A DNA stretch of 64,000 bases from Victivallales bacterium. Its GTDB lineage: Bacteria > Verrucomicrobiota > Lentisphaeria > Victivallales > GWF2-38-69. Shown here in pieces: positions 14,360 through 61,025 of the stretch (the stretch's first letter is position 1; every line of letters starts with the position of its first letter). The notes beneath the pieces were generated by a model. It made no database searches, was not told where the DNA came from, and was given only the letters and a program-made list of their open reading frames with translations. The stretch is from contig DASCNA010000145.1 of NCBI GenBank assembly GCA_036011305.1, positions 17,374 to 81,373 on the forward strand, written 5' to 3'. A program made the translations under genes and the position numbers.

Positions 14360-14377
14360 ATCTGATATTACCTCGGC

Positions 14378-19805: not shown

Positions 19806-19900
19806 GGAACAATGTTCGTTTAGTATAGAGGGTAGAGGATTTAGTGTATGGAAGAGATATTTAATGTTATATGTCAAGCGCTAAATTAAGAGAGATTATA

Positions 19901-20722: not shown

Positions 20723-20812
20723 ATAGTGACTGCAGATGGATGAAAAAAGTAAAAATTTAGACAAATCTATTGATAGCTGGTTACTGATTACTTAAAAAAG
20801 AGGGATTTAATT

Positions 20813-21772: not shown

Positions 21773-21788
21773 ATCAAAAGGTGTAACA

Positions 21789-22415: not shown

Positions 22416-22440
22416 ATTTTAAGATTATAGGAGTAAGAGT

Positions 22441-23499: not shown

Positions 23500-23542
23500 T
23501 AATTCAGTTGTTTATATATAAAAATTTAAAGATAGGGGAGTT

Positions 23543-24940: not shown

Positions 24941-25074
24941 CAGTAAAAGATTTAGCAAATTGTTGGTTTATTAATGTAATATAGAAATCCAAAAACGGAT
25001 TAAAGTTTCATTATAGAATAAATTTATACTCTAAGGAAGTATTAATTATTTATATAAGGGGGGGGATTTAAGTA

Positions 25075-34170: not shown

Positions 34171-34878
34171 ATGAATAATTGTAAGATTGCTTTTATTAAC
34201 TTAAAATATATTCTAACCTGTATTTTATTTGTCTTTTTTACGTTGACTTTCTCAGGCTGTTCTGACCCTGATACTAGTTCTTTTATGAAAGCTGCACATG
34301 ATGGCAATATTGTTGAGATTAAACAGTACATTTCTTCTGGAACAGATATAAACCGGAAGGATACTGAAGGTAATACCGCATTAATATACGCACTTAGCAG
34401 GGGATTAAATATATATGGGCAGAAATCAAATGATATTAATGTAATTAAATATTTGATAAATAATGGATCAAATGTTAATCTTGCTAATAATCTTGGCAAT
34501 ACTCCATTAATGTATGCAGCAATAATAGGGAATAAAAAAGCTCTATTACTGCTTGTTGAAAAAGGAGCTGATATACATTTAAAGAATAATAACGGTAATA
34601 CCGCTTTGTTTTTAGCTTCAGCTGCAGGACAAACACATGATGCTGTTTTACCTCTTTTAAAGTTAAAAGCTGATATTAATGCAAAAGATAATGCTGGATT
34701 AACCCCCTATACCGCAGCAGTTTATTGGAGGGAACTTAATACAATTAAAGAAATTAAAAATCATACTAAGCAAAATAATATATATTTAGAAACAAGTGAG
34801 TATGATTATTATCCAACGAAGACATATGGATTATTTGAAAACTCAACAAGCAACTCGGATTATTCAATGTCCAGATAA
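34171..34878 (+). CDS. Ankyrin-repeat lipoprotein
   Basis: Signal peptide with lipobox LTFSGC. About five ANK repeats (GNTALIYA, GNTPLMYAA, GNTALFLAS, GLTPYTAA). Confidence 0.85.
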   Translation: MNNCKIAFINLKYILTCILFVFFTLTFSGCSDPDTSSFMKAAHDGNIVEIKQYISSGTDINRKDTEGNTALIYALSRGLNIYGQKSNDINVIKYLINNGSNVNLANNLGNTPLMYAAIIGNKKALLLLVEKGADIHLKNNNGNTALFLASAAGQTHDAVLPLLKLKADINAKDNAGLTPYTAAVYWRELNTIKEIKNHTKQNNIYLETSEYDYYPTKTYGLFENSTSNSDYSMSR

Positions 34879-43458: not shown

Positions 43459-45045
43459 TTAGTGGTGTGTAGCTTCTTTTATGTTTTTTTGAAATGAAAG
43501 TGCTAAGAACAGAATGCCGAGAACTAAATAACCAATAGTTATATGGTAGCACATTGTTCTTTCTACTACAGGTAACAACCATGGTAGATACATTATTCCG
43601 TTCAAGTTTACCGACTGAACAATCCCAAAGAAAGAGAAACCAGCTAGTATAAATAGATATATTGAAGATTTTTTCAGATTTCTGTCTATTAATTCTGCAA
43701 CGAGACCTCCCCAGAGCATACCTGTCAAAATAAATCCATTTATCAGAGCAGCTAATACAAGAATATTTGGATAAGTTTCAGTTACTGCAGTACTCATTTG
43801 CAATAGCTTAGGAAAAGCGATATATGCTCCACCTGTAAGTGATATAAGCATAGGTTTCATTGCAGATGGGAACATCGCAAAAGCAGAAGCAACATAATGT
43901 CTCTTAGGTACTGCAGAGAAACCCTGGGCAATAATTTCAATTCCTACAAATATTAAGATAGGAGCAAAAATTGCAGTTGGGATGAGTTCGATTATATAGG
44001 AAACTATACCTGTAAATCCGCAAACGGCCATAAAAATAGCTATATATAAAGTATATCCCATTTTAGATCCCATGGCTTTGTACGCAGGCTGACCGGCATA
44101 AGCTGTAGTTTGAGTTATACTACCGCAGAAAGCACCTATTAAAGTAGTAATTCCATCAAGCAGTAAAATATTTTTAGGCCTATATGGGTCACCTACATCG
44201 ACTGCGCTGACAGTAACATTGATATCACCAATTGTAACAAGTATTGCAAAAGGTATAATTGCAGGAAGCAGCGGCCATATAAGATAAAAACCGTCAAACA
44301 TGCCCAGAGTTGGTGTAGGAAAGCTAAATGCAAGCTTGGCTGCAGGCGCTGTATAGTTAGTAGTAAGTATTCCGGAAAGACCTAGGATATGATAAATTAG
44401 AGCACAGCCTAAAACTCCTATAAGAAGGCCTGGCAGTTTTTTAGGGAATGGAATTCTTGCTATAAGTATATAAAGAACGAATCCTAAAGAGATAATACCT
44501 ACAAGTGGTAAAGCAAATATTTCTGTCAAAGCAAATATACCTATCATTACACCTATTCCTGCAAGTGACCCTAGAAGTCCGGCCATAGGTACAATTCTGG
44601 AAATAGCATTAGCAAACGGTGTAGCACAAATTTTAAAAAGTCCTATTATTCCTACTGAAGCCATACCTGCCTGCCAAGCTAAAATAGCAGCAGAGTGTGG
44701 ATCTATGCCGTTCTGCTTTAGTGTAACGAAAAGCGGACCTACAACTATGAGGGGCAAAGTTATGGTAGTAGGGGCATCCAGCCCATAAGGCATTGCCGTG
44801 ATATCAGTTCTTCCTGTCTTTTTCGCAATTCTTATGGCAATGATAGTCATTATCAGATTGCCAAGGAAAATAATAAGAACTATTCCAGGATAGATGTTAT
44901 AAAAAATAACTTCTCTTGGAAACTTAAATATCATCAGCATGACTGTTGCAAGAGAAAGGTTTGCCATATTATCGGAGACTAAACCTAAAAATCCATTAAT
45001 GTCTCCATATGCAAATAAACCTGATTTTTTCGCTTTTACATTCAT
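43459..45045 (-). CDS. Polytopic permease (possibly NCS2/xanthine-uracil-permease-like)
   Basis: 528 aa with 12 or more hydrophobic spans. The family assignment is a weak impression only. Confidence 0.45.
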   Translation of the reverse strand: MNVKAKKSGLFAYGDINGFLGLVSDNMANLSLATVMLMIFKFPREVIFYNIYPGIVLIIFLGNLIMTIIAIRIAKKTGRTDITAMPYGLDAPTTITLPLIVVGPLFVTLKQNGIDPHSAAILAWQAGMASVGIIGLFKICATPFANAISRIVPMAGLLGSLAGIGVMIGIFALTEIFALPLVGIISLGFVLYILIARIPFPKKLPGLLIGVLGCALIYHILGLSGILTTNYTAPAAKLAFSFPTPTLGMFDGFYLIWPLLPAIIPFAILVTIGDINVTVSAVDVGDPYRPKNILLLDGITTLIGAFCGSITQTTAYAGQPAYKAMGSKMGYTLYIAIFMAVCGFTGIVSYIIELIPTAIFAPILIFVGIEIIAQGFSAVPKRHYVASAFAMFPSAMKPMLISLTGGAYIAFPKLLQMSTAVTETYPNILVLAALINGFILTGMLWGGLVAELIDRNLKKSSIYLFILAGFSFFGIVQSVNLNGIMYLPWLLPVVERTMCYHITIGYLVLGILFLALSFQKNIKEATHH

Positions 45046-46274: not shown

Positions 46275-49040
46275 ATGGCTGACTTACAAAAGAAAAAAAA
46301 TATTAAACTTGGATTATTTTCATTAGTTATATTAAATATTGCTATTGTAGTTAATTTGAGTACTATAACTCCTTTTGATGATAATGATTTAAGTTATCTG
46401 TTTTTTTATATAATAGCAGCAGTTTTTTTCTTTATTCCTGTTGCTTTTGCAGTGGCTGAGTTATCAGCTATTAACCCTGAAAAAGGCGGAATTTATTATT
46501 GGATAAAAATTGCATTTGGTAAAAGTCTAGGCTTGTTTACAGTTTCCCTGCAATGGCTGGGATGCTCTGTTTTCTCTATAATATTCCTAACATTTGCATC
46601 TGCAAGCTTTGCTTTTATAATTATGCCCGATATCAAACAGGCGTTAAGTCTTGCTTCAAATGAATACTATATTATTCCATTTATTTTAGTAGTTTACTGG
46701 GGGATCACTTTTTTGATATTTAAAGGTATAAAAGTTATCCGTTTTCTATTCATATTCGGTGTATGTACATCAGTAATAATTCCCCTTATCTTATTAATTA
46801 GTTTAATATTTTACTATGTGTTTTATGGCCAGATTACCGGTTTTAATACTCATCATAATAGTTTTATACCAGATATTACTAAATTGTCTAATTTAAAAAT
46901 AGCAGCTTCAACTTTTACTTTTTTTCTTGGATTGGAAATGGCATCTAATTTTGGTAAAAATGTGAACACTCCTAGAAAAACATATTTTTATGGTACTTTA
47001 ATAACAGCTTTAATTATAATAATTTCATTTTTAATATTGTGTACATTTTATTTTGTTGTTTCTAATAGTGGAAAATCTAGTATTTTTATTATTGAAGTTA
47101 CTAGAGTTCTAAGAATCTTGATTGGGGGTACTGTCTACTATAAAATTTTAGGTAAGTTATTTCTTCTTTTAACTTTTTTAGGTGTCTTGGGGTGTTCATC
47201 TACATATATAATTGGAAGCTATAAAGGAATACTTTTTGGTATAAACGACCTAAACAATCGTCTATGGATAAATAAGAAAAATAAAAATGATATTCCATAT
47301 AGGGCATTAATAATACAGGCTGTTATAGTAAGTTTTTTCTGCCTTGCTTTTGTTTTGCAGCCAACTCCAGGTATGGTTTGTGCTATGCTTGGTGATTTTT
47401 TGATGCTGTTATTTTTATTAATGTATTTAATAATGTTTCCAGCTTTAATCAAAATTAGATTTTCAGTTTTGCAGAAACAAATGAATTATAAAATACCTGT
47501 CGGTAGATATGGAATATTCATTATTTATCTTGTAGGTTTTCTGAGCTCTGCATTTGCCATGTTTATTGGGTTATATCTTCCTGCAAAAACTTCAGGGAAA
47601 AACAATCCATTGATTTTAATAATCTTTTTTATAGTTTTATTAATATTATTATTACTGGCGCCCAGTATTGTGTATATCAAAAAGATCAGGTTACTGGTGT
47701 TTGGCAAGCCTGGGCAATCCGGTGTCGGGAAAAAAAGCATAGCTATTGTACTTGTAGGTCTTGGGATACTTGCATACATCATTAAATATGTACTGAATAT
47801 CATACTGACAAGATACCTTTCACCTTCAGATTATGGAGATTTAGCAGTAAGTTTGAGAATTATTATCATTCTATCTTTATTACTACTACTTGGAACAAAT
47901 AACTCTGTAAAAAAATATTTGACAAAATATCTCTTTGTAAGGGATATGGTGAGGATAAAAAGATTTATTCTGTGGAATTTAAAGATAATATATAAATCAC
48001 TGGTATCCTACGTTATCATGTTATTAATTGTATATTTGGTGATAGTCTTGCTGCATGTTTTAAGTATTAGAAATATGTATTCATATCATATTGCTTTGTT
48101 TTATTTGCCTATAGCTCCTTTAGCCGCAATATCAGTTCTGTTTTCAAGTTATATTTTAAGCAATAAATGGCCTGTACTCTTTTTCTTTTTCAGAAAAATA
48201 GCAGTTTTTATTTTTTCACTGATTTTAATTGGAGGTGGTATCCTATTTTATAATGTTGATATAAATCTATATACTATAGGAGTTTTTTTATTGCTAGCCC
48301 ATGGGTTAGTCATAATCTCAGAGCTTGTTTTAATTAATAAAATTTTTACTGAACATAGTATATCTTCATTAGTCGACAATTTTAAAAAGCGTATTGAAAA
48401 TGGGAAAGAAAAAGTATTATGGCTTACAGATTCGTTCCGAATGATTGGTACACAGTTAATATTTAATTTAATATGGACTATAGATCTTTTTATTCTCGAA
48501 GTTGTGCATAATTCCAATATGGATGTAGGATATTATGCTGCAATGCTTGTTCTTACAAACATTCTTCTTATTATTCCAAGTGCTGTAACAACTCTCCTTG
48601 TTCCGAATATTTCGTCTATGATATCAAAAGGTAGGTTTGATGAACTACAGCAAAATATTAATTTAGTTAACTCCATTAATATATTAATCCTTACTCTATT
48701 GTTAATAATACTTTTAATCTTCTCTGATACATTACTTTTAGTATTTGGTAAGTGGTATAATTCTGCTGAAGTACCATTTATCATTTTATGTTTTACATAT
48801 TATCTGGCATCAATATTTGTTCCAGGAGGGAAATTGTTGACTTTTACTGAAACGGGAAAGCAGTTTATTATTAGTATTACTGAGTTATTAATTGTTATTA
48901 TTTGCGGAATAGTTCTTACTTTACTTTGGGGGTTAACAGGAATGGCTCTTTCTGTACTAGTTTCAATTCTATTTAAATCATTAATAACTTATATTATTTT
49001 AAAGAGAAAGTTTCCGATTAAGCCTTTATCTATAATATAA
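46275..49040 (+). CDS. APC-type amino-acid permease (GadC/YjeM-like) fused to MOP-superfamily Wzx/PST-like flippase domain, paralogue 1 (921 aa, ~24 TM)
   Basis: N-half: KKKN tail, LVILNIAIVVNL, FFFIPVAFAVAELSAINPEKGGIYYWIKIAFG..LQWLG, 12 TM. C-half from ~aa 490: YVLNIILTRYLSPSDYGDLAVSLR, DVGYYAAMLVLTNILLIIPSAVTTLLVP, 12 TM. The ORF call is solid. The domain calls are motif-level. Confidence 0.8.
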   Translation: MADLQKKKNIKLGLFSLVILNIAIVVNLSTITPFDDNDLSYLFFYIIAAVFFFIPVAFAVAELSAINPEKGGIYYWIKIAFGKSLGLFTVSLQWLGCSVFSIIFLTFASASFAFIIMPDIKQALSLASNEYYIIPFILVVYWGITFLIFKGIKVIRFLFIFGVCTSVIIPLILLISLIFYYVFYGQITGFNTHHNSFIPDITKLSNLKIAASTFTFFLGLEMASNFGKNVNTPRKTYFYGTLITALIIIISFLILCTFYFVVSNSGKSSIFIIEVTRVLRILIGGTVYYKILGKLFLLLTFLGVLGCSSTYIIGSYKGILFGINDLNNRLWINKKNKNDIPYRALIIQAVIVSFFCLAFVLQPTPGMVCAMLGDFLMLLFLLMYLIMFPALIKIRFSVLQKQMNYKIPVGRYGIFIIYLVGFLSSAFAMFIGLYLPAKTSGKNNPLILIIFFIVLLILLLLAPSIVYIKKIRLLVFGKPGQSGVGKKSIAIVLVGLGILAYIIKYVLNIILTRYLSPSDYGDLAVSLRIIIILSLLLLLGTNNSVKKYLTKYLFVRDMVRIKRFILWNLKIIYKSLVSYVIMLLIVYLVIVLLHVLSIRNMYSYHIALFYLPIAPLAAISVLFSSYILSNKWPVLFFFFRKIAVFIFSLILIGGGILFYNVDINLYTIGVFLLLAHGLVIISELVLINKIFTEHSISSLVDNFKKRIENGKEKVLWLTDSFRMIGTQLIFNLIWTIDLFILEVVHNSNMDVGYYAAMLVLTNILLIIPSAVTTLLVPNISSMISKGRFDELQQNINLVNSINILILTLLLIILLIFSDTLLLVFGKWYNSAEVPFIILCFTYYLASIFVPGGKLLTFTETGKQFIISITELLIVIICGIVLTLLWGLTGMALSVLVSILFKSLITYIILKRKFPIKPLSII

Positions 49041-49083
49041 AATTTCTAATTCCTGCATTTTTACTATCTTTTATAATGGACTG

Positions 49084-49099
49084 TTTCAGGATATAATTA
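49084..49099 (+). promoter_or_regulatory. Conserved promoter-like motif TTTCAGGATATAATTA (contains TATAAT) upstream of paralogue 2
   Basis: An identical 16-mer occurs at 51955-51970. The whole intergenic spacer is homologous to the 51909-52020 spacer. Confidence 0.45.
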
Positions 49100-49142
49100 G
49101 AAATTATAATATATTCCTGTTCACTTATGTTTACGATTATAT

Positions 49143-51908
49143 ATGCTGAATTCAAATAAGAAAAAAAATAGTTCTTTTGGATTACCTTTATTAATAATTC
49201 TAAATATCATTATAGTTATTAATTTGAGTCAGCTTCTTCCTGTAGAAAGAATAGGTTTTAATCTAATGTTCTTTTACGCTATAGGTGTTGTTCTTTTCTT
49301 CATACCCGTCACTCTCACAGTAGCAGAGTTATCTGCCATTAATCCAGAACAAGGTGGAATTTATAATTGGGCTAAAATCGCCTTTTCAAGAAATATGGGG
49401 ATAATTGCTGCTATACTTCAGTGGTTGGGAGCTACTTTGTTTATTCTGCTTTTTCTTGTTTTTGCATTAATAAGTTTAGGTTTTGCCATTATGCCTACAA
49501 CTGAGGGCGCATTAAATTTTGCATCGAATCAATATTATACAATACCTTTTATTTTAGTAGTTTACTGGTTTATGACTTTTTTAAACACAAAAGGTATTAG
49601 AATGGTGAAAATTATAGGTATCTTTGGTCTTATAACTTCAATACTTATTCCTGTAATATTATTAATATTTCTAACTGTTTTATATATTTCATCAGGATTT
49701 GCTGCTGACTTAAGTTTTTCAGCTAAAAATTTTTTTCCTTCAATGACTAATCTGACTAATTTAGATATTGCAATTTCTACTTTTGGATTCTTTTTTGGGC
49801 TTGATCTTGCTTCAAATTTTGGGAAAGATGTAATTAATTCTCAAAAAAATTATTTTTATGGTACTTTATTGTCTGCCTGTTTTATAGTTGTCTTATTTTT
49901 GATACTTTGTACGTTTTATATTGTTGTGGCAAACGATGGTAAAGCTAACTTCATTTTTATAGAAGTTAACAGAGTATTGAATTCATTAATTGGCTCTCAC
50001 AAATATTCTAACTTACTGGGTAAATTATTTGCTTTTTCCATATTTATCGGTGCTGTAAGCTATGCGTTTATTTATATTTCAGTTTGCTGCAAAGGTATGC
50101 TATTTGCGGTAGAAGATGCCAATGACAAGCTTTGGCTTAATAAAAAAAATAAATATAATGTGCCAGTGAGAGCATTAATTATACAGGCAGCTTTGGTGAG
50201 TTTTTTCTGCCTTTTTTTTGTCCTCCAACCTAATATTGAGTTGGTTTGTTCTATGCTGGGTAATTTTATAGTATTACTGATATTGATATCGTATATAATA
50301 ATGTTTTCTTCTTTGATAAAAATTAGATTTTCAAGTTCGAATCTATCCAGCAGTCCATATAAATTACCTTTGGGTAAATATGGTGTTTTATTTATTACAG
50401 TAATAGGAATAGCAAGTTCTTCATTTGCAATATTTATAGGACTATATTTATCTCTCAGATTGACTTGGGGACACCATTTTATACTTTCTATTTTCTTTTC
50501 AGTAGTATTGCTGTGTATTTTATTATTCGCGGGTATAAAATATAGTAAGAATATTAAAATGTTAGTATTTGAAAAATCAGATCATACTAATAATAAAGGC
50601 CGTAAAATAGCGTTTACCTTGGTAGGTTTAGGTATTGCTGCATACTTTGTTAAATATTTTTTGAATATTATATTAACACGCCATCTTACCCCTTCAGAAT
50701 ATGGTGACCTGGCTGTTTTTCTCAGAACAGTAATCATTCTGTCTCTTGTTTTACTTCTAGGAACTAATAATTCTACTAAAAAATATTTATCTAAGTACCT
50801 AGTAAAAAAAGATATAAAAAACATCAGAGAGTTTATTATATGGAATAGCCGTGTTGTACGCAAAGCATTATTAATTTATATATTATCACTTTTTGGTCTA
50901 TATGTGATCATGTCTATTTTACATTTATTCGATATAAAGAATTTTTTCTCTTACCATTATGTTTATTATTATTTGGCTGTGGCCCAATTAGCTGCGATTG
51001 CTGTCCTGTTTTCAAGTTATATTCTTAGTAATAAATGGCCTATTCTGTTTTTTTTCTTTAGGAAAATTGCAGTTTTTGTTGTAATGCTGATTCTTATTGG
51101 AGGAGGTTTACTTTTCTATAATGTTAAAATTAATTTATACAGTATAGGAATTTTTCTACTTATTTCATACCTAATCGTTATTTTTGCCGAATTAGTTTTT
51201 ATTAGTAAATTCTCAACAGAGCATAATGTAACAAATGTTATAAATGATTATAAAGTTGACATAGAAAATAAAACTGTAAAAAAACAGTGGTTGTCAGATT
51301 CTTTTAGAATGATCGGCAGTCAGTTAATATTTAATCTTATCTGGGCTATTGATCTGTTTATTCTTGAAGGAATTCATAATTCAGAACATGATGTAGGTTA
51401 CTATGCAGCAATGCTTGTTTTGACAAATATACTGCTTATTACACCCAGTGCTATAACTACACTTTTAATTCCGCGTATCACTCATTTTGTTTCAGAGAAA
51501 AAATTTAAAGAACTTCAGGACAATATAAATATTATAAATTTAATGAATTTTGCCATATTAACTGTAATGTTGATTATTTTATTAACTTTTTCCGAAGATT
51601 TACTTTTGTTGTTTGGTAAAGGTTATAATTCAGCAGAAATACCTTTTATTATTTTATGTTTTACTTACTATATTGCTTCTATTTTTGTTCCTGCAGGGAA
51701 AATACTTACGTTTGTGGAAACAGATTTACAGTTTAAAATTAATTTGATAGAGTTGATAATAGTAATAGTATTAGGAATAAGCCTGACATGGCTATGGGGG
51801 CTAACAGGTATTGCAGTTTCTGTGTTTATTTCTATTATATTTAAATCACTTCTGACTTACATAATTCTAAAAAAGAAAATACCTATTAAACCATTTTCAC
51901 TGTTATAA
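49143..51908 (+). CDS. APC permease / MOP flippase-like fusion, paralogue 2 (921 aa)
   Basis: Colinear with paralogue 1. The N-half is closest to copy 1 (AELSAINPEQGGIY). The C-half is closest to copy 3. Confidence 0.8.
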   Translation: MLNSNKKKNSSFGLPLLIILNIIIVINLSQLLPVERIGFNLMFFYAIGVVLFFIPVTLTVAELSAINPEQGGIYNWAKIAFSRNMGIIAAILQWLGATLFILLFLVFALISLGFAIMPTTEGALNFASNQYYTIPFILVVYWFMTFLNTKGIRMVKIIGIFGLITSILIPVILLIFLTVLYISSGFAADLSFSAKNFFPSMTNLTNLDIAISTFGFFFGLDLASNFGKDVINSQKNYFYGTLLSACFIVVLFLILCTFYIVVANDGKANFIFIEVNRVLNSLIGSHKYSNLLGKLFAFSIFIGAVSYAFIYISVCCKGMLFAVEDANDKLWLNKKNKYNVPVRALIIQAALVSFFCLFFVLQPNIELVCSMLGNFIVLLILISYIIMFSSLIKIRFSSSNLSSSPYKLPLGKYGVLFITVIGIASSSFAIFIGLYLSLRLTWGHHFILSIFFSVVLLCILLFAGIKYSKNIKMLVFEKSDHTNNKGRKIAFTLVGLGIAAYFVKYFLNIILTRHLTPSEYGDLAVFLRTVIILSLVLLLGTNNSTKKYLSKYLVKKDIKNIREFIIWNSRVVRKALLIYILSLFGLYVIMSILHLFDIKNFFSYHYVYYYLAVAQLAAIAVLFSSYILSNKWPILFFFFRKIAVFVVMLILIGGGLLFYNVKINLYSIGIFLLISYLIVIFAELVFISKFSTEHNVTNVINDYKVDIENKTVKKQWLSDSFRMIGSQLIFNLIWAIDLFILEGIHNSEHDVGYYAAMLVLTNILLITPSAITTLLIPRITHFVSEKKFKELQDNINIINLMNFAILTVMLIILLTFSEDLLLLFGKGYNSAEIPFIILCFTYYIASIFVPAGKILTFVETDLQFKINLIELIIVIVLGISLTWLWGLTGIAVSVFISIIFKSLLTYIILKKKIPIKPFSLL

Positions 51909-51954
51909 CAATTTCCAAGACTACTTTTATTCCTAATCTTATATAATGAATCAT

Positions 51955-51970
51955 TTCAGGATATAATTAA
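51955..51970 (+). promoter_or_regulatory. Conserved promoter-like motif TTTCAGGATATAATTA upstream of paralogue 3
   Basis: An exact repeat of 49084-49099. Confidence 0.45.
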
Positions 51971-52020
51971 TAATTATCGTATATTTAAACACCTATTTAA
52001 TCAGTTTATAATATAAATAT

Positions 52021-54777
52021 ATGCAAACCTCAAAGAAGAAAAACGGCGGCTATATCGGATTATTTTCTTTAGTCATGATCAACGTCTTATTGGTTGCCAA
52101 CCTGAGATTTGTACCTCATGTATCAGATGTTACTTTTTACACAGTTATTGTTTCAATACTTGCCGGTTTATTCTTTTTTTTCCCAATTTGTATGGTTGTA
52201 GCAGAACTTTATCCGATATGGCCAGAGCGCGGGGGCGTTTATCACTGGGTTACCAAGGCATTTAATGAAAAGATAGGATTTGTAGCTGTGTTTTTACAGT
52301 GGGGAGTGGTTCTTCTTTTAGGACTTCTAATACTTGGATTTGCCGCCGCATGTTTTGCTTTTGTTTTTACACCTACAATAGAAGACGGTATATCTTTAGC
52401 ATCTAATAAATATTATATAGTTTTGAGTGTTATAGTATTTAACTGGGTAATAATATTTATCAATAAAAAAGGTTTACATCTAACTAAAAAATTCAGTATA
52501 TTAAGTACAATATTCGGTGTTATAATACCACTTTTAACGCTAATTGTTTTAACATTTATCTATTTATACAAAGGAAATATTTCACATTTAAATTTATCTT
52601 CGACAAAAATATTTCCTGACATGTCTAATATTCATAATCTGAATCTTGCTTTCAGTATGTTTGTTTTTTTCTTGGGGATAGAAGTTGCAGCAGGTTATGG
52701 TAAAAATATATTGAAATCGAATAAATATCCACGTGTGATACTAATATCTTCAGTTGTAATTTTTATTATTTTAATTTTAACTATTCTCTCTATTTCGATA
52801 ATGCTGAATGAAAAAACAGGTTATTTCAGTGTAGACTTACACATAATATTTACGAAACTTTTTCCTGGTTATAATCTCTACTTTCTCATTAGAGTTTTCC
52901 TCTTAGTGCTCGGTATTGGAACATTGGGATGTATGAGTACATGGATAACTGCAATCAGCAAAGGGGTTGTCTATGTTTTTGAAGAAAACAGTTTACTTTT
53001 CTGGTTCAGTAAAAAAAATAAAAATGATGTTCCCTTTAGACTTTTAATCCTGCAGGCCGTTATTATAAGTCTGCTGTGTCTATCGTTTGCTCTGCAGTCC
53101 ACAATATATCTTACAGATGTTATGCTGTCTCAGTTCGTAATGCAAATGTATTTAATTATGTATATTATTGTTTTCATTTCTGCAATTAAACTCAGATACC
53201 GTTATCCTGATGTATCAAGGCCGTTTAAAATACCTTTCGGCAATGTGGGAATCTGGATTCTAGGTGTGATTGGCATAATAGGTTCATGTATTGCCATATT
53301 AACAGGCTTTTATCTTCCTCTTCAACTTACAGGCAAGAATTACCCTCTAATTGTTGCAGTGTTTTTTGTGATAATTATACTGATTGTGATAATGTTCCCT
53401 ACAATAATATACAGTAAAAACTTTAAGGTACTAATATTTGATAAATCAGATAACTCTAATAACAGAAAACATAAAATTGCATTAACTCTCGTAGTGCTCG
53501 GGATTGCTGCTTATTTGGTAAAATATTTTTTAAATATTATACTGACAAGGCATTTAGGAGCACATGAGTATGGAGACCTTGCTGTATTTCTTAAGTTAGT
53601 GGTAATTTTATCATTATTAATACTTGTCGGAACAAATAACTCCGCAAAAAAATATTTATCAAAATACTTTATCGGAAGAGATATAAATAATAGTATAGAT
53701 TTCATAGTATGGAATTTGCGCATAGTATATAAGGCATTCATTATTTATATATTATTTCTTTTTGTCCTATATATATTGATGGGTGTTCTTCATGTGTTTG
53801 ATATCAAAGATTTTTTCTCTCATCATTATGTTTTTTATTATATTTCCGTTGTCCCTCTTGCTTCAATAGCTGTTCTTTTTTCCTGTTATATCCTCAGTAA
53901 TAAATGGCCTATTCTGTTTTTCTTTTTTAGAAAAATTTCCGTATTTGTAGTAATGCTGATTTTAATTGGTGGAGGGATACTTTTTTACAATGTAAAAATT
54001 AATTTAAACAGTATCGGGATTTTTTTACTTGTCTCATATATTATCGTCATCGTTGCTGAATTAGTATTTATAAGCAGAATAAGCATAGAACATAATATTT
54101 TTTCCGAAAGAATTAATTTTAAGAGTAAGGTTAATAAATCAAAAGAGAGAAAACAATGGCTAGCAGATTCTTTCAGGATGATAGGCAGCCAGTTAATATT
54201 TAACCTCATATGGGCAATTGATCTGTTTATTCTTGAAGGAATTCATCATTCAGAACATGATGTGGGTTACTATGCAGCAATGCTTGTTCTGATAAATATA
54301 CTTCTCATTACACCAAGCGCTATAACCACACTGTTAATACCGCGCATTAACCATTTTGTATCTGAAAAGAAATTTGGAGAACTTCAGAATAACATTAATC
54401 TTATTAATTTAATGAATATTGCCATTTTGACAGTATTGCTGATACTTCTACTGGTATTTTCAGAAACGTTGCTTCTTTTCTTTGGAGAAGGATATAATTC
54501 AGCAGAAATACCTTTTATTATATTATGTTTTACTTACTATATAGCTTCAGTTTTTGTACCTGCTGGAAAGGTGCTTACTTTTGTGGAAACCGGGATACAG
54601 TTCAAAGTAAGTGTAATGGAATTAATAATTGTTGTTGTTCTGGGAGTGATTTTTACATGGTTCTGGGGATTGACAGGCATAGCAGTATCAGTACTTATAT
54701 CTATTTTGTTTAAATCCTTAATGACATATATCATTTTAAAAAGAAAACTGCCGATTAATCCACTGTCATTATTTTAG
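52021..54777 (+). CDS. APC permease / MOP flippase-like fusion, paralogue 3 (918 aa)
   Basis: The N-half is closest to copy 4 (FFFPICMVVAELYPIWPE). The C-half is nearly identical to copy 2 over long runs. Confidence 0.8.
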   Translation: MQTSKKKNGGYIGLFSLVMINVLLVANLRFVPHVSDVTFYTVIVSILAGLFFFFPICMVVAELYPIWPERGGVYHWVTKAFNEKIGFVAVFLQWGVVLLLGLLILGFAAACFAFVFTPTIEDGISLASNKYYIVLSVIVFNWVIIFINKKGLHLTKKFSILSTIFGVIIPLLTLIVLTFIYLYKGNISHLNLSSTKIFPDMSNIHNLNLAFSMFVFFLGIEVAAGYGKNILKSNKYPRVILISSVVIFIILILTILSISIMLNEKTGYFSVDLHIIFTKLFPGYNLYFLIRVFLLVLGIGTLGCMSTWITAISKGVVYVFEENSLLFWFSKKNKNDVPFRLLILQAVIISLLCLSFALQSTIYLTDVMLSQFVMQMYLIMYIIVFISAIKLRYRYPDVSRPFKIPFGNVGIWILGVIGIIGSCIAILTGFYLPLQLTGKNYPLIVAVFFVIIILIVIMFPTIIYSKNFKVLIFDKSDNSNNRKHKIALTLVVLGIAAYLVKYFLNIILTRHLGAHEYGDLAVFLKLVVILSLLILVGTNNSAKKYLSKYFIGRDINNSIDFIVWNLRIVYKAFIIYILFLFVLYILMGVLHVFDIKDFFSHHYVFYYISVVPLASIAVLFSCYILSNKWPILFFFFRKISVFVVMLILIGGGILFYNVKINLNSIGIFLLVSYIIVIVAELVFISRISIEHNIFSERINFKSKVNKSKERKQWLADSFRMIGSQLIFNLIWAIDLFILEGIHHSEHDVGYYAAMLVLINILLITPSAITTLLIPRINHFVSEKKFGELQNNINLINLMNIAILTVLLILLLVFSETLLLFFGEGYNSAEIPFIILCFTYYIASVFVPAGKVLTFVETGIQFKVSVMELIIVVVLGVIFTWFWGLTGIAVSVLISILFKSLMTYIILKRKLPINPLSLF

Positions 54778-54812
54778 AAATTAAAGATTCTGTTGCTCAG
54801 TAAAGGATTAAA

Positions 54813-57563
54813 ATGGAAAAAGTAGATAAAAAAAACAGTATCGGATTTTTTACAATAGTATTAATAAATTTAGCGCTTCTTATTAACATCAGGTTTATTA
54901 CGCATCTGTCCTGTGCTGATAATGATACCATTGCGTTTACTATTATAATAGCACTTTTATTCTTTTTCCCAATATGCATGGTAGTTGCAGAACTTCATCC
55001 CATTTGGCCGGAAGATAGCGGAATATATACCTGGGTTAGTAAAGCTTTTGGTAAAAGGATAGGTTTTATTACAGTTTTCCTCCAATGGTTTTTAATATTA
55101 ATGCTTAGTCTTATTTTATTCCGCTCTGCTGCAGATAGAATAGCTTTTTCATTTACCAGAACAAATAAGCAAGCTATATCTTTATCCTCTAATGATTATT
55201 ATGTGGTACTTCTAATTATCATTTTCACTTGGGTAGCTATACTTATAAATCGAAAAGGGATTTCTATAATTAAGAAATTAGCTGTAGTTACCGTACTGTT
55301 TCGTGTTATTATACCATTGATTGTAATGATTGTCCTGGCAATTCTGTACCTATCAATAGGTTATTCTTCAAATGCAGCACCACCTGTGACAAAGGATTTT
55401 ACTGATATCACAAGTATACGCAACCTGTTTTTTGCTTTTAGTATATTTGCTTTATTTATTGGAATAGATGCACCTGCTAATTATGGGAAAGTAATTTTAA
55501 AACCAGGCAGATATCCTCGAGCAATCCTTGTTACAGGTGTTTTAATATTTATTATTCTGTTTGTCTTTATTTTTACAACGTCTATAATACTAAGCCATAA
55601 ATCAGATTACTTTGTGTTTAATTTGCATATAACCCTTTCTGAAACTTTTCCTTCATATAATTTTGATTTTCTGATTAGAGTTTTCGATTTGATTTTGGCG
55701 ATAGGTACAATCGGATGTACCTGCATTTGGCTAATGACTGTTAGTAAAGGTTTTGTAAGAGTAATTGAAGACAGCAGGTTATTTTCTATATTTAGAAAAG
55801 AAAATAAAAATAATGCCCCTGTGAGATTTTTTGTATTACAGGCTGTTATTACCAGTTTTTTATGTCTGTTATTTACTTTGCAGCCAACTATAAATTTAGC
55901 AGAAGTAATGATTTCACAGTTCTTTTTGCAGTTATACCTTATTTTGTACATAATTATCTTTATTACATCAATAAAACTAAGATATATATACCCTGATATT
56001 AGAAGGCCTTATAAAATACCTTTTGGAAACGCTGGAATTTGGGGAGTAGCTATTATTGGAATAATCGGTTCCGGTATTGCAATATTTATAAGCTGTTATT
56101 ACCCTCTTAAATTTACAAGAGATGGTCATCCTGTTATAATTTCTATTTTTTTTAGTATAGTTTTACTTTTAGTTCTCCTAATGCCTTCTTTGGTTTTTAT
56201 AAAAAAGCTTAAAATACTTGTATTTGAAAAGTCGGATCACTCTAATAACAGTCGAAGTAAAGTTGCATTGACACTTATAATTTTGGGAATTTCTGCTTAT
56301 TTTGTTAATTACGTATTGAATGTATTAATAGCAAGACATATTAATGCTTCGCAATATGGTAATTTAGCAGTTTTTTTAAGGACAGTTGTTATAGTATCTC
56401 TTTTACTTTTATTAGGAACTAATAATTCAGTAAATAAGTATCTGCCTAAATTTTTTATAAATAATGATAGAGATAATATTAAGAAATTTGTCCACTGGAA
56501 TTGGTTTGTTATTCGAAAAACATTTACTATTTATATTTTTGCTCTTTTTATTTTATATCTTATTATGGGGATATTGAATTTTTTAGGAATAAAAAGTTTT
56601 TTTTCATACCCTTATGTATTTTACTATCTGGCTGTTGCGCCGTTTGCTTCTCTTACGGTTCTTTTTTCCAGCTATATTCTCAGTAATAAGTGGCCCATGC
56701 TGTTTTTTTTCTTTAGAAAGATAGCTGTAGCATTTATCATGCTTGCTCTAATGGGAGGTGGTGTACTCTTTTATAATGTGAGGATTAATTTATATAGTAT
56801 TGGAGTATTTATTTTTACATCATACTTTTTAGTTATTCTTTTAGAATTGATATTCATCAATAAAATCTATAGGGAACATAAATTTCAATTTATAGTAAAC
56901 AGTATGAAAGAAATTGTTCATGGTGCAAAAGATAAGTCTAAATGGTTATCCGACTCATTTAAAATGATTGGGAGCCAGTTGATCTTGAATCTAATATGGG
57001 CTATTGATTTTTTTATATTGGAAACAATGCATTCATATGATAATGATGTTGGATATTATGCCGCAATTCTGGTAATTACAAATGTTCTTCTTATAACACC
57101 CAGTGCAATTACAACATTTCTTATACCAAAAATTACTCATTATGTAGAAGAGAAGAAATATAAAGAGCTTCAGGTTAATATAAATCTTATTAATTTGCTG
57201 AACATTTCAATTTTAGCAGTTTTGCTCATTCTTTTACTGATATTTTCTAAGTTTTTATTGCTGATTTTTGGAAAAGGATACGATTCAGCAGAAATACCTT
57301 TTATTATTTTGTGTTTTACATATTTTTTAGCTGCAGTATTTATTCCTACAGGTAAAATTTTATCTTTTCTTGATACTGGTATTCAGTTTAAAATCAATAT
57401 TATAGAGCTTATAATTGTTATTATTTTAGGAGTTATTTTTACTCTCATGTGGGGATTAACAGGTATCGCATTATCAGTGTTTATTTCAATTTCAACAAAA
57501 TCTATTTTAGCTTACATTAATGTTAAAAGAAAACTTAAAATTAATCCACTGTCATTATTTTAA
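54813..57563 (+). CDS. APC permease / MOP flippase-like fusion, paralogue 4 (916 aa)
   Basis: Only 35 bp after copy 3, with SD AAAGGA and no upstream promoter motif. Probably co-transcribed with copy 3. Confidence 0.8.
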   Translation: MEKVDKKNSIGFFTIVLINLALLINIRFITHLSCADNDTIAFTIIIALLFFFPICMVVAELHPIWPEDSGIYTWVSKAFGKRIGFITVFLQWFLILMLSLILFRSAADRIAFSFTRTNKQAISLSSNDYYVVLLIIIFTWVAILINRKGISIIKKLAVVTVLFRVIIPLIVMIVLAILYLSIGYSSNAAPPVTKDFTDITSIRNLFFAFSIFALFIGIDAPANYGKVILKPGRYPRAILVTGVLIFIILFVFIFTTSIILSHKSDYFVFNLHITLSETFPSYNFDFLIRVFDLILAIGTIGCTCIWLMTVSKGFVRVIEDSRLFSIFRKENKNNAPVRFFVLQAVITSFLCLLFTLQPTINLAEVMISQFFLQLYLILYIIIFITSIKLRYIYPDIRRPYKIPFGNAGIWGVAIIGIIGSGIAIFISCYYPLKFTRDGHPVIISIFFSIVLLLVLLMPSLVFIKKLKILVFEKSDHSNNSRSKVALTLIILGISAYFVNYVLNVLIARHINASQYGNLAVFLRTVVIVSLLLLLGTNNSVNKYLPKFFINNDRDNIKKFVHWNWFVIRKTFTIYIFALFILYLIMGILNFLGIKSFFSYPYVFYYLAVAPFASLTVLFSSYILSNKWPMLFFFFRKIAVAFIMLALMGGGVLFYNVRINLYSIGVFIFTSYFLVILLELIFINKIYREHKFQFIVNSMKEIVHGAKDKSKWLSDSFKMIGSQLILNLIWAIDFFILETMHSYDNDVGYYAAILVITNVLLITPSAITTFLIPKITHYVEEKKYKELQVNINLINLLNISILAVLLILLLIFSKFLLLIFGKGYDSAEIPFIILCFTYFLAAVFIPTGKILSFLDTGIQFKINIIELIIVIILGVIFTLMWGLTGIALSVFISISTKSILAYINVKRKLKINPLSLF

Positions 57564-57571
57564 GAATAACG

Positions 57572-57596
57572 GAAGGTGCTATTTTTCAGCACCTTC
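57572..57596. terminator. Bidirectional rho-independent-type hairpin closing the paralogue array
   Basis: gaaggtgct-atttttc-agcaccttc is a 9-bp stem. It lies between convergent genes ending at 57563 (+) and 57611 (-). Confidence 0.75.
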
Positions 57597-57610: not shown

Positions 57611-59011
57611 TTATATTTCTATTATTTTTCCAGGATTTAGTATCAATTTTGGGTCAAAAACCTCTTTTATACCTTTTGAGATTTTCATTCCTGTTGCTTT
57701 GATTGATTTTTTCAAATATGGTACTTTGGCATAACCTATTCCATGTTCTCCGGATACATTACCGCCAATTTCCTCTGTTCTGGTATAGAGACGCTCGAAA
57801 ACATTGTCCAAAGTTTTTTCCCAGGTTTTATTATCAAGATCATCTTTTAATACATAGATGTGAAGATTTCCGTCACCTGCATGACCAAAACTTCTTATCT
57901 GTATATTATATTCTTTCTGAAGAGCATGTGAGAATTTAATAAATTCTGCTATCTTATCTCTAGGCACAACTACATCACATTCATCAAGTTCTGTCGTTGA
58001 AGCTTTAATAGCTTCTAAAAATGTACCTCTCGCAGACCATATAGATTCATTCCTTTCAGGAGTATTTGAGATAAATACATCTATTGCTCCTGCATCTAAA
58101 CATTTGTGGGCAATTTTTTCATATGATTCCTCTAATTCGCTTTTTGTATTTCCGTCAAATGTTAATATTAAATATGCATCTGCTGTATTATGCGGGAATT
58201 TTTTACCTATATATTTTTCAGTATTCAGTATTGCTTCACGTTCCGTAAACTCCAGAGCTGTAGGTATTATTTTTGATTTTAAGATAGTAGGCACAGCTTC
58301 GATAGCTTTTTCAAGACTGGGGAAGGGGACTAATAATGAAATATTGAATTTTGGTACTGGTAATAGTTTAAGTATCGCTTTAGTAACAATGACTAATGTT
58401 CCTTCCGATCCAATTATAATATCTTTAAGGCTGTAACCTGAACTGGTTTTGACAATTTTTCCGCCAATTTTATCCATTTCTCCATTTGGATAGACTATTT
58501 CCAACCCCAAAACATTTTCTCTGGTAACACCATATTTCATGGCACGCATACCGCCAGCATTAGTATTAATATTACCGCCTATGGTTGCACTTTTTTCACC
58601 TGGATCTGGAGCATAGAAATAACCGGTTCCATCAAGATAGGATATTATATCCATCAGAAGGACTCCTGATTCTACTGTAAGAGTCATATTGCTTTCATCC
58701 ATTTCCAGGATATTGTTCATTTTGCATAAACTGAGCATAATGCCGCCGTAAACAGCCACTGCAGATCCCACTAAACCCGTACCCTGTCCTCTGGGAGTTA
58801 CAGGTATATTATTATCATAGGCATATCTCATGACCTTAGAGATTTCTTCTGAGTTGTTCACTTCAACCAATACATCGGGATAAACTTTTTTTGCTGCAAG
58901 TTCATCATGACTGAAATCTTCATTTATTTCATTGCCGGTATATACTTTATCTTTACCTAATATTGAAATAAGAGCATCAATATTTTTCTGAGTTATTTTA
59001 TTGTATTCCAT
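57611..59011 (-). CDS. FAD-linked oxidase, GlcD / LctD-type (D-)lactate dehydrogenase
   Basis: PCMH-type FAD domain (PVTPRGQGTGLVGSAV) and a C-terminal GlcD-like domain (GEHGIGYAK). Confidence 0.85.
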   Translation of the reverse strand: MEYNKITQKNIDALISILGKDKVYTGNEINEDFSHDELAAKKVYPDVLVEVNNSEEISKVMRYAYDNNIPVTPRGQGTGLVGSAVAVYGGIMLSLCKMNNILEMDESNMTLTVESGVLLMDIISYLDGTGYFYAPDPGEKSATIGGNINTNAGGMRAMKYGVTRENVLGLEIVYPNGEMDKIGGKIVKTSSGYSLKDIIIGSEGTLVIVTKAILKLLPVPKFNISLLVPFPSLEKAIEAVPTILKSKIIPTALEFTEREAILNTEKYIGKKFPHNTADAYLILTFDGNTKSELEESYEKIAHKCLDAGAIDVFISNTPERNESIWSARGTFLEAIKASTTELDECDVVVPRDKIAEFIKFSHALQKEYNIQIRSFGHAGDGNLHIYVLKDDLDNKTWEKTLDNVFERLYTRTEEIGGNVSGEHGIGYAKVPYLKKSIKATGMKISKGIKEVFDPKLILNPGKIIEI

Positions 59012-59024
59012 GATTTATAACCTC

Positions 59025-60221
59025 CTAAACAATCTTTCTACCATTTTTGATCTTTTCTATTAACTGTGGGATAATCTCATATACATCGCCGACAATCCCA
59101 TAATGTGCTACATCAAATATAGGCGCATTACTATCATTGTTTATTGCAAAAATAGTATCGGCATTACTCATCCCTGCTCTGAATTGAATTGCTCCTGAAA
59201 TACCGCATGTAATAATTAATTTGGGTTTAACAGTTCTTCCGCTTAAACCAATTTGGCGTATGGGATCTACTATCCCTTCCTCAATTAAAGGCCGTGAACT
59301 GCCTAATTCTGCGTCAAGTAATTTGGCTAACTCATTTACCATATTTAAATCTTCTTTCTTCTTAAACGCTCTTCCCACAGCAATAATAACAGGTGCATCT
59401 TCTATATTTGCAGTTTTTTCTTTCTGTTTGATCTCAAGAATTTCTATATCTGATTTTAATTTTCTTTCCTCAATATTACAGCATATGAGTTTAGCACTGT
59501 TTTTTTTCCCTTTTTCTTTTGGCGGATCAAAGACTTTATATCTCACAGTTGCAAACTGTGGTCTATGATCAGGTGTCCTTATATGTGCCATTATATTTCC
59601 GCCGAATGCAGGTCTAATCTGATCTAAATCGGTATTTAGCTGAACATCAAGTACTGTACAGTCTGCAGTTAAACCAGTTTTAAATGTTGCGGCAACTCTT
59701 GGAGCTAAGGATCTTCCGATATTTGTAGCTCCCACAAGTATGCTTGAAGGTTTTGTTTTATTTATAAAATCGGTGAATACTGATTTATAAGGTTCTATTT
59801 TAAAGTTATCTAATTCTTGTTGGTCATATACATAGAGTTCATCAATACCCCATTCCAATATCTCGTCAGCATATTTTTTTACATCGTAGCCGGCTAATAA
59901 GCAGTAAACTGGATGGTTAATTTTTGCAGCCATTTCTTTGGCCTTACCTATTAGTTCATATGATACAGGATGTATTTTTCCTTCACTGCGCTCAATAAAA
60001 ACTGCTATACCTTCCCATGAAGATTTATCTATATAAGGTCTGTCTGTTTCTACTATTTCAAATGCTCCTATCGGACCTTTTTTGACGCATAGACTGCACA
60101 TTTTACAGGCGGCATTAACAGTTATTTTTCCATCTATATTTTCTAATGCATTAAATGGGCAAACTTCTAAGGTATTTTCTATATTATCAATCTTATTCTG
60201 GTGTATTATCAATTTAGACAT
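59025..60221 (-). CDS. etfA: Electron transfer flavoprotein alpha subunit with N-terminal ferredoxin-like 4Fe-4S domain
   Basis: N-terminal Cys motifs (CPFNAL; CKMCSLCVKKGP). EtfA FAD signature LIITCGISGAIQFRAGM. Confidence 0.85.
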   Translation of the reverse strand: MSKLIIHQNKIDNIENTLEVCPFNALENIDGKITVNAACKMCSLCVKKGPIGAFEIVETDRPYIDKSSWEGIAVFIERSEGKIHPVSYELIGKAKEMAAKINHPVYCLLAGYDVKKYADEILEWGIDELYVYDQQELDNFKIEPYKSVFTDFINKTKPSSILVGATNIGRSLAPRVAATFKTGLTADCTVLDVQLNTDLDQIRPAFGGNIMAHIRTPDHRPQFATVRYKVFDPPKEKGKKNSAKLICCNIEERKLKSDIEILEIKQKEKTANIEDAPVIIAVGRAFKKKEDLNMVNELAKLLDAELGSSRPLIEEGIVDPIRQIGLSGRTVKPKLIITCGISGAIQFRAGMSNADTIFAINNDSNAPIFDVAHYGIVGDVYEIIPQLIEKIKNGRKIV

Positions 60222-60236
60222 ATGAACTTCTCCCTG

Positions 60237-61025
60237 TTAAATAAATTTGAGCTCAGTTAATTTATCAACTATTCTGGTTGATAGTTCATCACTTTTTCCT
60301 TCCCATATTTCATGTTCATCATTACATGGAGGAGGAAATATTTTTATAACCTGTGTAGGTGATCCTGTCAGGCCGTATTTAGTTTCATCTTTATCTTCAA
60401 AATCATTAAGTTTATATGTAGGAATGTTCTTGTTCTGTGTATGTAGTTTTCTAATAAAAGAAGGCAGTCTTGCCTGACCTATTCCGGAATCAACTGTTAT
60501 TAGACATGGCAGTTTAATCTTTAAGATTTCTGTAGTTCTATCCATGTCAGTCTCAACAGTTATTGATGTTTCATCCATTTCTATAATATTTTTAATATAA
60601 GCAGCGTGAGGTATATCAAGAAAGTTAGCTATCTCTGGACCTACCTGAGCTGTATCGCCGTCAGTTGTCTGCTTTCCGCATATTATTAAATCAGGTTCAG
60701 GAAGTTTTTTAATTCCCTGTGATAGTGTGTAGGCTGTAGCCAATACATCGGCTCCGGCAAATTTACTGTCTGATACCATAACACCGTCATCTACCCCCAT
60801 CATAAAGGCTTCTTTTATTATTTCTTTTGCCTGTGGAGGCCCCATGGTAATAGTATGTACTTTTGCATTGTATTTGTCTTTTAACTGTACTGCTGCTTCT
60901 ATAGCGTATAGATCATATGGATTGATCTTTGATTCAATTCCTCCACGTCGCAATACCCAGGTTTTTTCATCAATATCCACTTCAGTTGTACTTGGAACCT
61001 GCTTAATACATACAAGTATGTTCAT
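60237..61025 (-). CDS. etfB: Electron transfer flavoprotein beta subunit
   Basis: MNILVCIKQVP N-terminus and typical EtfB length and pattern. SD AGGAGGA. Confidence 0.9.
   Translation of the reverse strand: MNILVCIKQVPSTTEVDIDEKTWVLRRGGIESKINPYDLYAIEAAVQLKDKYNAKVHTITMGPPQAKEIIKEAFMMGVDDGVMVSDSKFAGADVLATAYTLSQGIKKLPEPDLIICGKQTTDGDTAQVGPEIANFLDIPHAAYIKNIIEMDETSITVETDMDRTTEILKIKLPCLITVDSGIGQARLPSFIRKLHTQNKNIPTYKLNDFEDKDETKYGLTGSPTQVIKIFPPPCNDEHEIWEGKSDELSTRIVDKLTELKFI

Follow-up and report, generated by a model that had tools for sequence, protein, structure and literature searches.

Four consecutive genes in a 64-kb stretch of DNA from a Victivallales bacterium (GenBank assembly GCA_036011305.1; the whole stretch analysed is called the window below) each encode a single polypeptide in which a GadC-like amino acid permease of the APC superfamily is joined to a polysaccharide transporter (PST)-like protein of the MOP superfamily, giving 24 transmembrane (TM) helices per chain. 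We hold this architectural conclusion with very high confidence: an earlier note on this DNA, made from its letters, had proposed a GadC-like APC permease joined to a 12-TM MOP/PST protein, and sequence profiles, a profile search of the PDB, AlphaFold modelling and Foldseek comparison all agree with it. Each part is of a known kind, and the combination appears to be undescribed as far as our database searches reach.

The four paralogues, P1 to P4, lie one behind the other on the forward strand within 11.3 kb (positions 46275-57563), each with an ATG start and no internal stop, and the list of open reading frames (ORFs) bears out the claim of four intact tandem same-strand frames of 921, 921, 918 and 916 amino acids. 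Module boundaries were set by hmmsearch. P1 (46275-49040, 921 amino acids; 88 bits for PF13520 and 39 bits for PF01943 in Pfam) comprises an APC module at residues 1-478 (nt 46275-47708), a linker at residues ~479-486 and a MOP module at residues 487-921 (nt 47733-49037). The modules of P2 (49143-51908, 921 amino acids), a mosaic copy, span nt 49143-50576 (APC) and 50601-51905 (MOP); those of P3 (52021-54777, 918 amino acids) span nt 52021-53445 and 53470-54774, and those of P4 (54813-57563, 916 amino acids) span nt 54813-56231 and 56259-57560. The spacers between successive genes measure 102, 112 and 35 nt, and because the gap between P3 and P4 is only 35 nt, P4 is probably co-transcribed with P3. 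The G+C content of the array is 28-30 %, against a window average of 32.6 %.

Our data demonstrate that the N-terminal module is an APC-superfamily permease of the LeuT fold, on the GadC/TyrP (glutamate:γ-aminobutyric acid (GABA) antiporter) branch. AA_permease_2 (PF13520) matched all four copies at 88-123 bits (Pfam cut-off 27) over residues ~25-455, and the top NCBIfam models were those of the GadC Gln/Glu:GABA antiporters and of the Tyr:tyramine antiporter TyrP, at 128-307 bits against cut-offs of 630-674. GadC (PDB entry 4dji) was the sole PDB sequence relative of a full-length copy (E = 6e-34, residues 2-466). When the N half was compared with the PDB by Foldseek, GadC again came first (target TM-score 0.77-0.81 over ~470 columns), followed by BasC, LAT1, AdiC and ApcT (0.68-0.81 for these best hits together, GadC included), and the model itself is a 12-TM LeuT fold with helix breaks at residues ~25-38 (TM1) and 215-220 (TM6). 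Thus the N half shares with GadC and TyrP the AA_permease_2 match, the 12-helix LeuT fold, a lysine-rich cytoplasmic N tail and the best-scoring models. It differs from them in scoring far under the equivalog cut-offs (214-307 versus 650 bits for the GadC model TIGR03813; 155-243 versus 640 bits for NF053662) and in the fate of the C plug: the 4dji alignment stops at chain residue 466 of 511, and the linker and a second 12-TM domain stand where GadC has its plug. It differs further in that 11-13 of the 40 family-conserved residues are altered in the window copies and that no decarboxylase gene was found among the scanned window ORFs or at the other fusion loci. The N half therefore resembles GadC and TyrP but is not an orthologue of either.

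The data also show that the C-terminal module is a MOP-superfamily protein with 12 helices that belongs, by sequence, to the PST (Wzx-like) family. Polysacc_synt (PF01943) matched all four copies over residues ~488-780, scoring 33-39 bits when the full protein was searched and 39-49 bits when the half was isolated; the margin above the cut-off of 28.2 is modest, and no other Pfam family exceeded its cut-off in the C half. The earlier note had expected PF13520 in the N half and PF01943 plus PF14667 (Polysacc_synt_C) in the C half, and the first two were found above their gathering cut-offs while PF14667 gave no C-half match even at E <= 10. MatE (PF01554) stayed below its cut-off, with P2 alone matching at 22.2 versus 24.9 bits, and MurJ (PF03023) reached only E = 9.5, the C-half model having 12 helices against the 14-TM architecture of MurJ; these sub-threshold MatE and MurJ hints, together with one to SpoVB, fit the membership of the C half in the MOP superfamily. 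A profile of the four C halves found no match in the PDB, and a 36-sequence profile of the C-half family matched the MATE transporter DinF-BH at ~1e-11 and MurJ at 4e-4. The AlphaFold model of the P3 C half (predicted local distance difference test (pLDDT) 89.7, predicted TM-score (pTM) 0.86) has 12 helices in two six-helix lobes. Foldseek placed it near MurJ 7waw (query TM-score 0.73), the lipid III flippase WzxE 9g9p (target TM-score 0.74) and many MATE transporters, and all 50 of its top 50 PDB fold matches are MOP members. Read from the sequence, TM1 carries a PST-like signature (ILTRHLTPSEYGD; ...LTRHLxPxEYGD...), and the conserved positions of this MOP family include the intramembrane carboxylates E680, D734, E739 and E867 and the polar residues N505, D519, N565 and Q789. 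Judged by profile, the C half is neither a MATE nor a MurJ protein. With PST/WzxE, MurJ and the MATE transporters (DinF-BH, NorM) it has in common the Polysacc_synt match, the PST-like TM1, the two six-helix lobes and TM-scores of ~0.7; unlike PST/WzxE it is fused behind a permease, has no Polysacc_synt_C match and stands outside a glycan locus, and unlike MurJ it is without the two extra helices.

The C half belongs to a distinct subfamily of ~443-amino-acid stand-alone proteins, without a characterised member, that occur both in Lentisphaerota-like genomes of low G+C and in uncultured Gammaproteobacteria. RpoA encoded at the locus of one stand-alone member, P0065, is ~70 % identical to that of Gammaproteobacteria metagenome-assembled genomes (MAGs), which indicates that the subfamily is not limited to Lentisphaerota. 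The more distant stand-alone relatives of the C half (~29 % identity) were seen in uncultured Gammaproteobacteria at locus L090 (25-1197 and 7001-8329) and locus L091 (7001-8332).

At the level of the whole protein, the AlphaFold2 model of full-length P3 (25 aligned sequences; helices taken from DSSP) reached pLDDT 82.9 and pTM 0.74 with 12 + 12 helices: the first twelve end by residue 462, a short helix (466-474) and a loop come next, and the other twelve begin at residue 483, with a 20-residue linker between TM12 and the MOP module. In the loops of the 24 modelled helices, 30 lysines and arginines are assigned to the inside versus 7 to the outside, and therefore the N terminus, the linker and the C terminus would all be cytoplasmic; in the model, this N-in/linker-in/C-in topology is as expected for the direct joining of a 12-TM APC protein and a 12-TM PST protein. 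No solved structure in the PDB covered both halves in the Foldseek comparison. The linker is rich in lysine and arginine, gap-free and of equal length in every fusion, with the motif Y-x-K-x-x-K-x-L-[IV]-F-x-K-[ST]-D, and it keeps this length and motif although the N halves of distant fusions are just 23-31 % identical. The sequence LVFEKSDHSNN, which had been assigned to copies 2-4, is exact in copy 4; copy 2 reads LVFEKSDHTNN and copy 3 LIFDKSDNSNN, and copy 1 has LVFGKPGQSGV. The pTM of 0.74 for a chain of 918 residues suggests, as a property of the model, that the two modules adopt a defined mutual arrangement.

Could the fusion be an artefact, either two neighbouring genes that an error in sequencing or assembly has joined, or a set of decaying pseudogenes? 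This explanation is effectively refuted. Uninterrupted fusion ORFs occur in the window genome, in the sister MAG GCA_024224655.1 (at least three loci), in GCA_021733985.1, in an independent Logan assembly and on a Joint Genome Institute (JGI) contig, all of them metagenome-derived or draft assemblies, and the four proteins of the window are also present in public collections, where they lie on a 442-kb contig. The junction is thus read through four times in the window and in at least four independent assemblies, and a 217-amino-acid fragment on a 922-bp NCBI contig (P0010) crosses the P2 junction; because the ORFs are continuous in four or five independent assemblies, we conclude that the fusion is not an assembly artefact. 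In the sister MAG, P0008 is the P1 orthologue (93 % identical), and P0001, at a contig end (locus L001), is an N-truncated P3 orthologue (91 % identical) whose locus shares the downstream FAD-dehydrogenase/EtfAB/Ada synteny with the window. Between P3 and this L001 orthologue, the ratio of nonsynonymous to synonymous substitution rates (dN/dS) comes to 0.103 in the N half and 0.086 in the C half at dS ~0.48, and values of ~0.10 and ~0.09 indicate that both modules are kept by strong purifying selection, which, like the lack of internal stops, speaks against decay.

The architecture is also rare. An exhaustive HMMER search, in which 1.84 billion representative proteins (standing for ~15 billion) were compared with a profile built from the four paralogues, gave 5475 matches, of which the best 150 were examined; remote, independent APC-MOP fusions scoring less than ~196 bits would fall outside these. 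Apart from the window's own cluster, the full-length fusions among these 150 were only P0019 (916 amino acids), P0020 (919) and P0021 (919), accompanied by two junction-containing fragments, P0022 and P0010; the rest were stand-alone APC proteins of ~470 amino acids (top score 342 bits) or stand-alone MOP proteins of ~443 amino acids (~30 proteins, top score 353 bits). P0019 and P0022 come from two further loci of the sister MAG GCA_024224655.1, P0020 from the Victivallales bacterium MAG GCA_021733985.1 and from the independent Logan assembly, and P0021 from the JGI metagenome contig, and the 90 % cluster of P4 holds the window's own sequence only. The fusion is thus apparently confined to Victivallales-type genomes as far as it can be traced. 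ProS encoded in the window shares no more than 71 % identity with its counterparts in Victivallales and Lentisphaerota MAGs, which marks the host of the window as a Victivallales-like member of the Lentisphaerota. Two conserved C-half peptide patterns were absent from 185,579 GTDB species representatives, which shows the absence of those exact motifs only. Public annotation calls the fusions only "amino acid permease" or "glutamate:GABA antiporter", and our literature searches turned up no description of an APC-MOP fusion. The view that the architecture is rare and undescribed, put forward on the letters alone, accordingly survives a search in which three further full-length fusions appeared among the best 150 of 5475 matches.

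How did this family arise? In neighbour-joining (NJ) trees with bootstrap, the fusion N halves group together (94 %) when placed among 59 stand-alone APC relatives. The fusion C halves likewise make up a single clade (62 %), which itself lies within a 98.5 % clade that includes the stand-alone proteins P0023, P0025, P0027 and P0054. One clade for each half points to a single fusion event followed by duplication; the fusion arose once, apparently within the Victivallales (Lentisphaerota), and was then duplicated to several loci and into the tandem array. Domain swapping from various stand-alone APC donors was considered as a cause of the strong differences among the N halves and rejected because the fusion N halves form one clade at 94 %, with the caveat that NJ is subject to long-branch attraction. 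After the fusion, the two halves have diverged unequally. Among the window copies, identity is 33-52 % between N halves and 55-76 % between C halves, and the C half is the more conserved in 21 of 21 full-length fusion pairs. At positions at least 85 % conserved in the respective stand-alone family (40 in APC, 33 in MOP), the window C halves retain 29-30 of 33 residues, where stand-alone proteins retain 30.5 on average, whereas the window N halves retain 27-29 of 40, where stand-alone proteins average 37.7 and never fall below 32. This asymmetry in residue retention identifies the MOP module as the conservative partner and the APC module as derived and diversifying, and the faster divergence of the permease half, noted earlier from the letters, is upheld by both the identities and the residue counts.

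The window copies also record exchange among themselves. Their N-half tree is ((P1,P2),(P3,P4)), each pair at 100 %, and their C-half tree is (P1,(P4,(P2,P3))) at ~98 %; by sliding nucleotide identity, P2 switches from P1-like to P3-like at alignment column ~460, that is, at the linker, with identity rising to 92 % further downstream. The conflict between the trees and the position of the switch lead us to conclude that whole modules have been shuffled between copies by recombination or gene conversion. P4 itself is missing at the equivalent site of the sister MAG GCA_024224655.1, where MFS_1 and Peptidase_M20 genes are found (L001 2590-4956). Because P4 in one genome and the MFS_1/Peptidase_M20 pair in the other both lie between the P3 orthologue and the FAD-dehydrogenase/EtfAB genes, this looks like cassette replacement between close relatives.

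With respect to function, the reading we favour, and hold tentatively as the most likely one, is that each protein hard-wires import to export, with an amino-acid-type specificity module as the variable part. It builds on three observations: the MOP hallmarks are kept, the family was never found within a glycan locus at the sites inspected and the permease halves are divergent between paralogues. The APC module would take up or exchange an amino-acid-type solute whose identity differs between paralogues, and the conserved MOP module, whose membrane-embedded carboxylates E680, D734, E739 and E867 are typical of cation-coupled antiporters, would act as a cation-coupled exporter of a common small product or counter-solute and not of an undecaprenyl-linked glycan; the fusion would guarantee 1:1 stoichiometry and proximity of the two activities. 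A precedent for such logic is NarK1-NarK2 of Paracoccus, in which two complete 12-TM secondary transporters share one polypeptide, a pairing that presumably hard-wires uptake to exchange or export. The APC-MOP fusions are comparable in that they too consist of two complete 12-TM secondary transporters; they differ in that the NarK domains are homologous MFS proteins acting on related ions in a defined pathway, whereas the modules here come from the unrelated superfamilies APC and MOP. Several points weigh against the import/export pair. Its main weakness is that GadC-type proteins alone already import and export, so that the need for a second module is unexplained. In addition, the best Pfam family of the C half is that of lipid-linked-glycan flippases, and the conserved basic residues K/R525, K/R544 and K898 of the MOP family leave room for a phosphate-bearing or lipid-linked substrate. 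The loss from the N halves of about a quarter of the residues that are near-invariant in stand-alone relatives makes a loss of canonical transport possible; no recurrent enzyme gene beside the fusions defines a precursor or product, the FAD-linked oxidase being adjacent at two loci only; and pTM is the sole basis for the inter-domain packing.

If instead, along the lines of the speculative mechanism in the earlier note, the C module were a true Wzx-type flippase, the APC module would import an amino-acid-like compound that is attached in the cytoplasm to a lipid-linked precursor and then flipped, a logic that resembles LicB choline import with TacF flipping of choline-decorated teichoic acid. 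PF01943 as the only C-half Pfam family over its cut-off, the PST-like TM1, WzxE 9g9p and MurJ among the best structural matches, conserved basic residues near TM2 and TM14 and the capsule and sulfation genes 5-10 kb from P0019 all fit such a flippase. We nevertheless consider it rather unlikely, as PF14667 is not matched, and the 64-kb window holds no glycosyltransferase, polymerase, ligase, chain-length regulator, nucleotide-sugar or decoration-transferase gene, nor does any of these stand beside a fusion or stand-alone relative that was inspected. At least five copies per genome with different permease halves would, moreover, need equally many decorated lipid-linked substrates, and the capsule genes in the vicinity of P0019 run in the other direction, with unrelated genes in between. 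A more intimate version of coupling, in which import is linked mechanically or kinetically to MOP export of a derivative (perhaps aminoacylated or decorated and lipid-linked), or in which the two modules form a composite APC-MOP pathway, with the APC halves as a specificity repertoire, would make the protein an obligatorily coupled machine of a so far undescribed kind; we regard this as quite improbable.

It is also conceivable, if not very probable, that the modules are independent, fused for co-expression or co-localisation or fixed as a neutral accident, so that the proteins are permeases with an uncoupled passenger exporter. Both families are abundant as stand-alone proteins, the stand-alone C-half genes at the loci fetched are not beside GadC-like permeases, no two-gene precursor was seen and the fusion is limited to a narrow lineage. 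Mere cohabitation sits less well with a linker whose length and motif are kept at 23-31 % N-half identity, with recombinants that preserve the N-linker-C format, with the retention of the fusion through many duplications without secondary fission among the top matches and with the mutual arrangement suggested by the pTM of 0.74. Finally, one module might not transport at all: the APC half could be a sensor (transceptor) that gates a MOP exporter, or the MOP half a structural or regulatory scaffold. The N halves do lie on long branches and have changed 11-17 of 40 conserved positions, including G38, G166, P312, G323 and P326; the window copies nonetheless keep the core APC residues P55, E62, L63, G72, W76, G151, G219, E221, N333, Q345 and Y381, the N half has a dN/dS of 0.10 and a model with a complete LeuT fold near GadC, and the MOP half keeps essentially all family-conserved residues, which together make a non-transporting module very doubtful.

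The import/export reading draws part of its support from genomic context. In Pfam and NCBIfam scans of the 45 window ORFs of at least 150 amino acids, no glycosyltransferase, Wzy/WaaL, Wzz or sugar-nucleotide gene was found, in line with the earlier description of the window as a non-glycan locus, and no conjugating enzyme, glycan or lipid-carrier gene accompanies any fusion or inspected stand-alone C-half relative. The neighbours of the fusions and of five stand-alone relatives are instead other transporters, genes of amino-acid or peptide catabolism and unrelated genes, which we counted against a glycan role. P0020 directly follows a 702-amino-acid FAD_binding_4/FAD-oxidase_C gene on the same strand (L084 2410-4518), and other fusions adjoin genes for further transporters, namely an NhaC-type antiporter, an MscS-type channel and, in overlap with the fusion gene, an MFS sugar_tr protein. 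The overlap is that of P0019 (L082 10001-12751), the fifth fusion copy of the sister MAG, with the end of the MFS sugar-transporter gene (L082 8737-10014); it measures 14 nt and suggests translational coupling of the two. CysD, CysNC (sulfate activation), KpsF-like and capsule genes lie 2-10 kb downstream of P0019 on the other strand, those for capsule and sulfate activation at 5-10 kb and behind unrelated genes. Among the stand-alone relatives, P0023 lies next to genes for an AMP-binding enzyme, an SDR protein, peptidases, serine dehydratase and adenosine deaminase, P0025 next to a divergent tyrosine-specific permease (Trp_Tyr_perm) gene and P0027 next to SurE and GH130 genes; the neighbours of P0061 are insertion sequence (IS) elements, an integrase and an OspG-like effector kinase, and those of P0065 are SSB, an MFS gene and the ribosomal-protein operon, which P0065 follows at its rpoA-rplQ end. 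No GadC-like permease gene stands beside a stand-alone C-half gene in the loci fetched.

The array itself is preceded by genes for a DUF975 membrane protein and a 528-amino-acid polytopic protein and followed by an FAD-linked (lactate-type) dehydrogenase with EtfAB. The 528-amino-acid membrane protein (43459-45045, reverse strand) has no Pfam or NCBIfam match even at relaxed thresholds, and its gene lies between a methylmalonate-semialdehyde-type aldehyde dehydrogenase gene and the DUF975 gene, an order that, by protein numbering, is kept in the sister MAG. Downstream, positions 57611-61025 (reverse strand) encode the FAD-linked (D-lactate-type) dehydrogenase, then EtfA with an N-terminal ferredoxin-like cysteine cluster and then EtfB, which by its gene content looks like an electron-confurcating lactate-utilisation module. 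Within the array, two copies of a 50-nt element form a direct repeat upstream of P2 (49066-49115, with a promoter-like match at 49070-49097) and upstream of P3 (51936-51985, with a promoter-like match at 51984-52012), both on the forward strand. The copies are 82 % identical and carry TATAAT-like boxes (ATCTTxTATAATGxAxxxTTTCAGGATATAATTA...), and the element, by consensus matches only, may be a shared promoter or operator. A similar TTTCAG...ATATAAT string is also present ahead of P1. At the other end, where P4 and the FAD-linked dehydrogenase gene converge, a terminator-like scan found a G+C-rich hairpin between them (57572-57596) whose 10 pairs include 5 G-C, probably a bidirectional terminator closing the array. 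An Rfam scan of the window gave no match.

Elsewhere in the window, positions 11633-16129 (reverse strand) encode the alpha subunit of a formate dehydrogenase, which bears a NuoG/Fe-hydrogenase-like domain at its N terminus and adjoins a fused NuoE-NuoF; the arrangement points to a soluble enzyme, either NAD(P)-linked or bifurcating, which would fit an anaerobic fermentative lifestyle. A sugar/cyclitol utilisation cluster (17901-26493, forward strand) contains an IolD-like thiamine pyrophosphate (TPP) enzyme, a split transketolase whose N and C parts have a gene each, an RpiB/LacAB isomerase, a Gfo/Idh/MocA oxidoreductase and, in tandem, two transporters of the MFS_2 (GPH) type. An ankyrin-repeat protein (34171-34878, forward strand; Ank_2, 117 bits) in a genome of ~32 % G+C could be a hint of host association. 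Just one gene related to lipid phosphates was noticed in the window; it encodes a 406-amino-acid PAP2-superfamily membrane phosphatase (4028-5251, reverse strand) and lies 41 kb from the array, with no sign of a link to it.

Complete secondary-transporter fusions across unrelated superfamilies are rare and act as Rosetta stones for functional coupling, and in the present case public annotation hides the APC-MOP architecture. Practical impact is limited for now, as the hosts are uncultured. The fusion nevertheless provides a first functional lead, toward amino-acid-type solutes, for an orphan Wzx-like subfamily, because it ties that subfamily to a GadC-like permease, and it offers a natural system for asking whether PST-family proteins move anything besides lipid-linked glycans.

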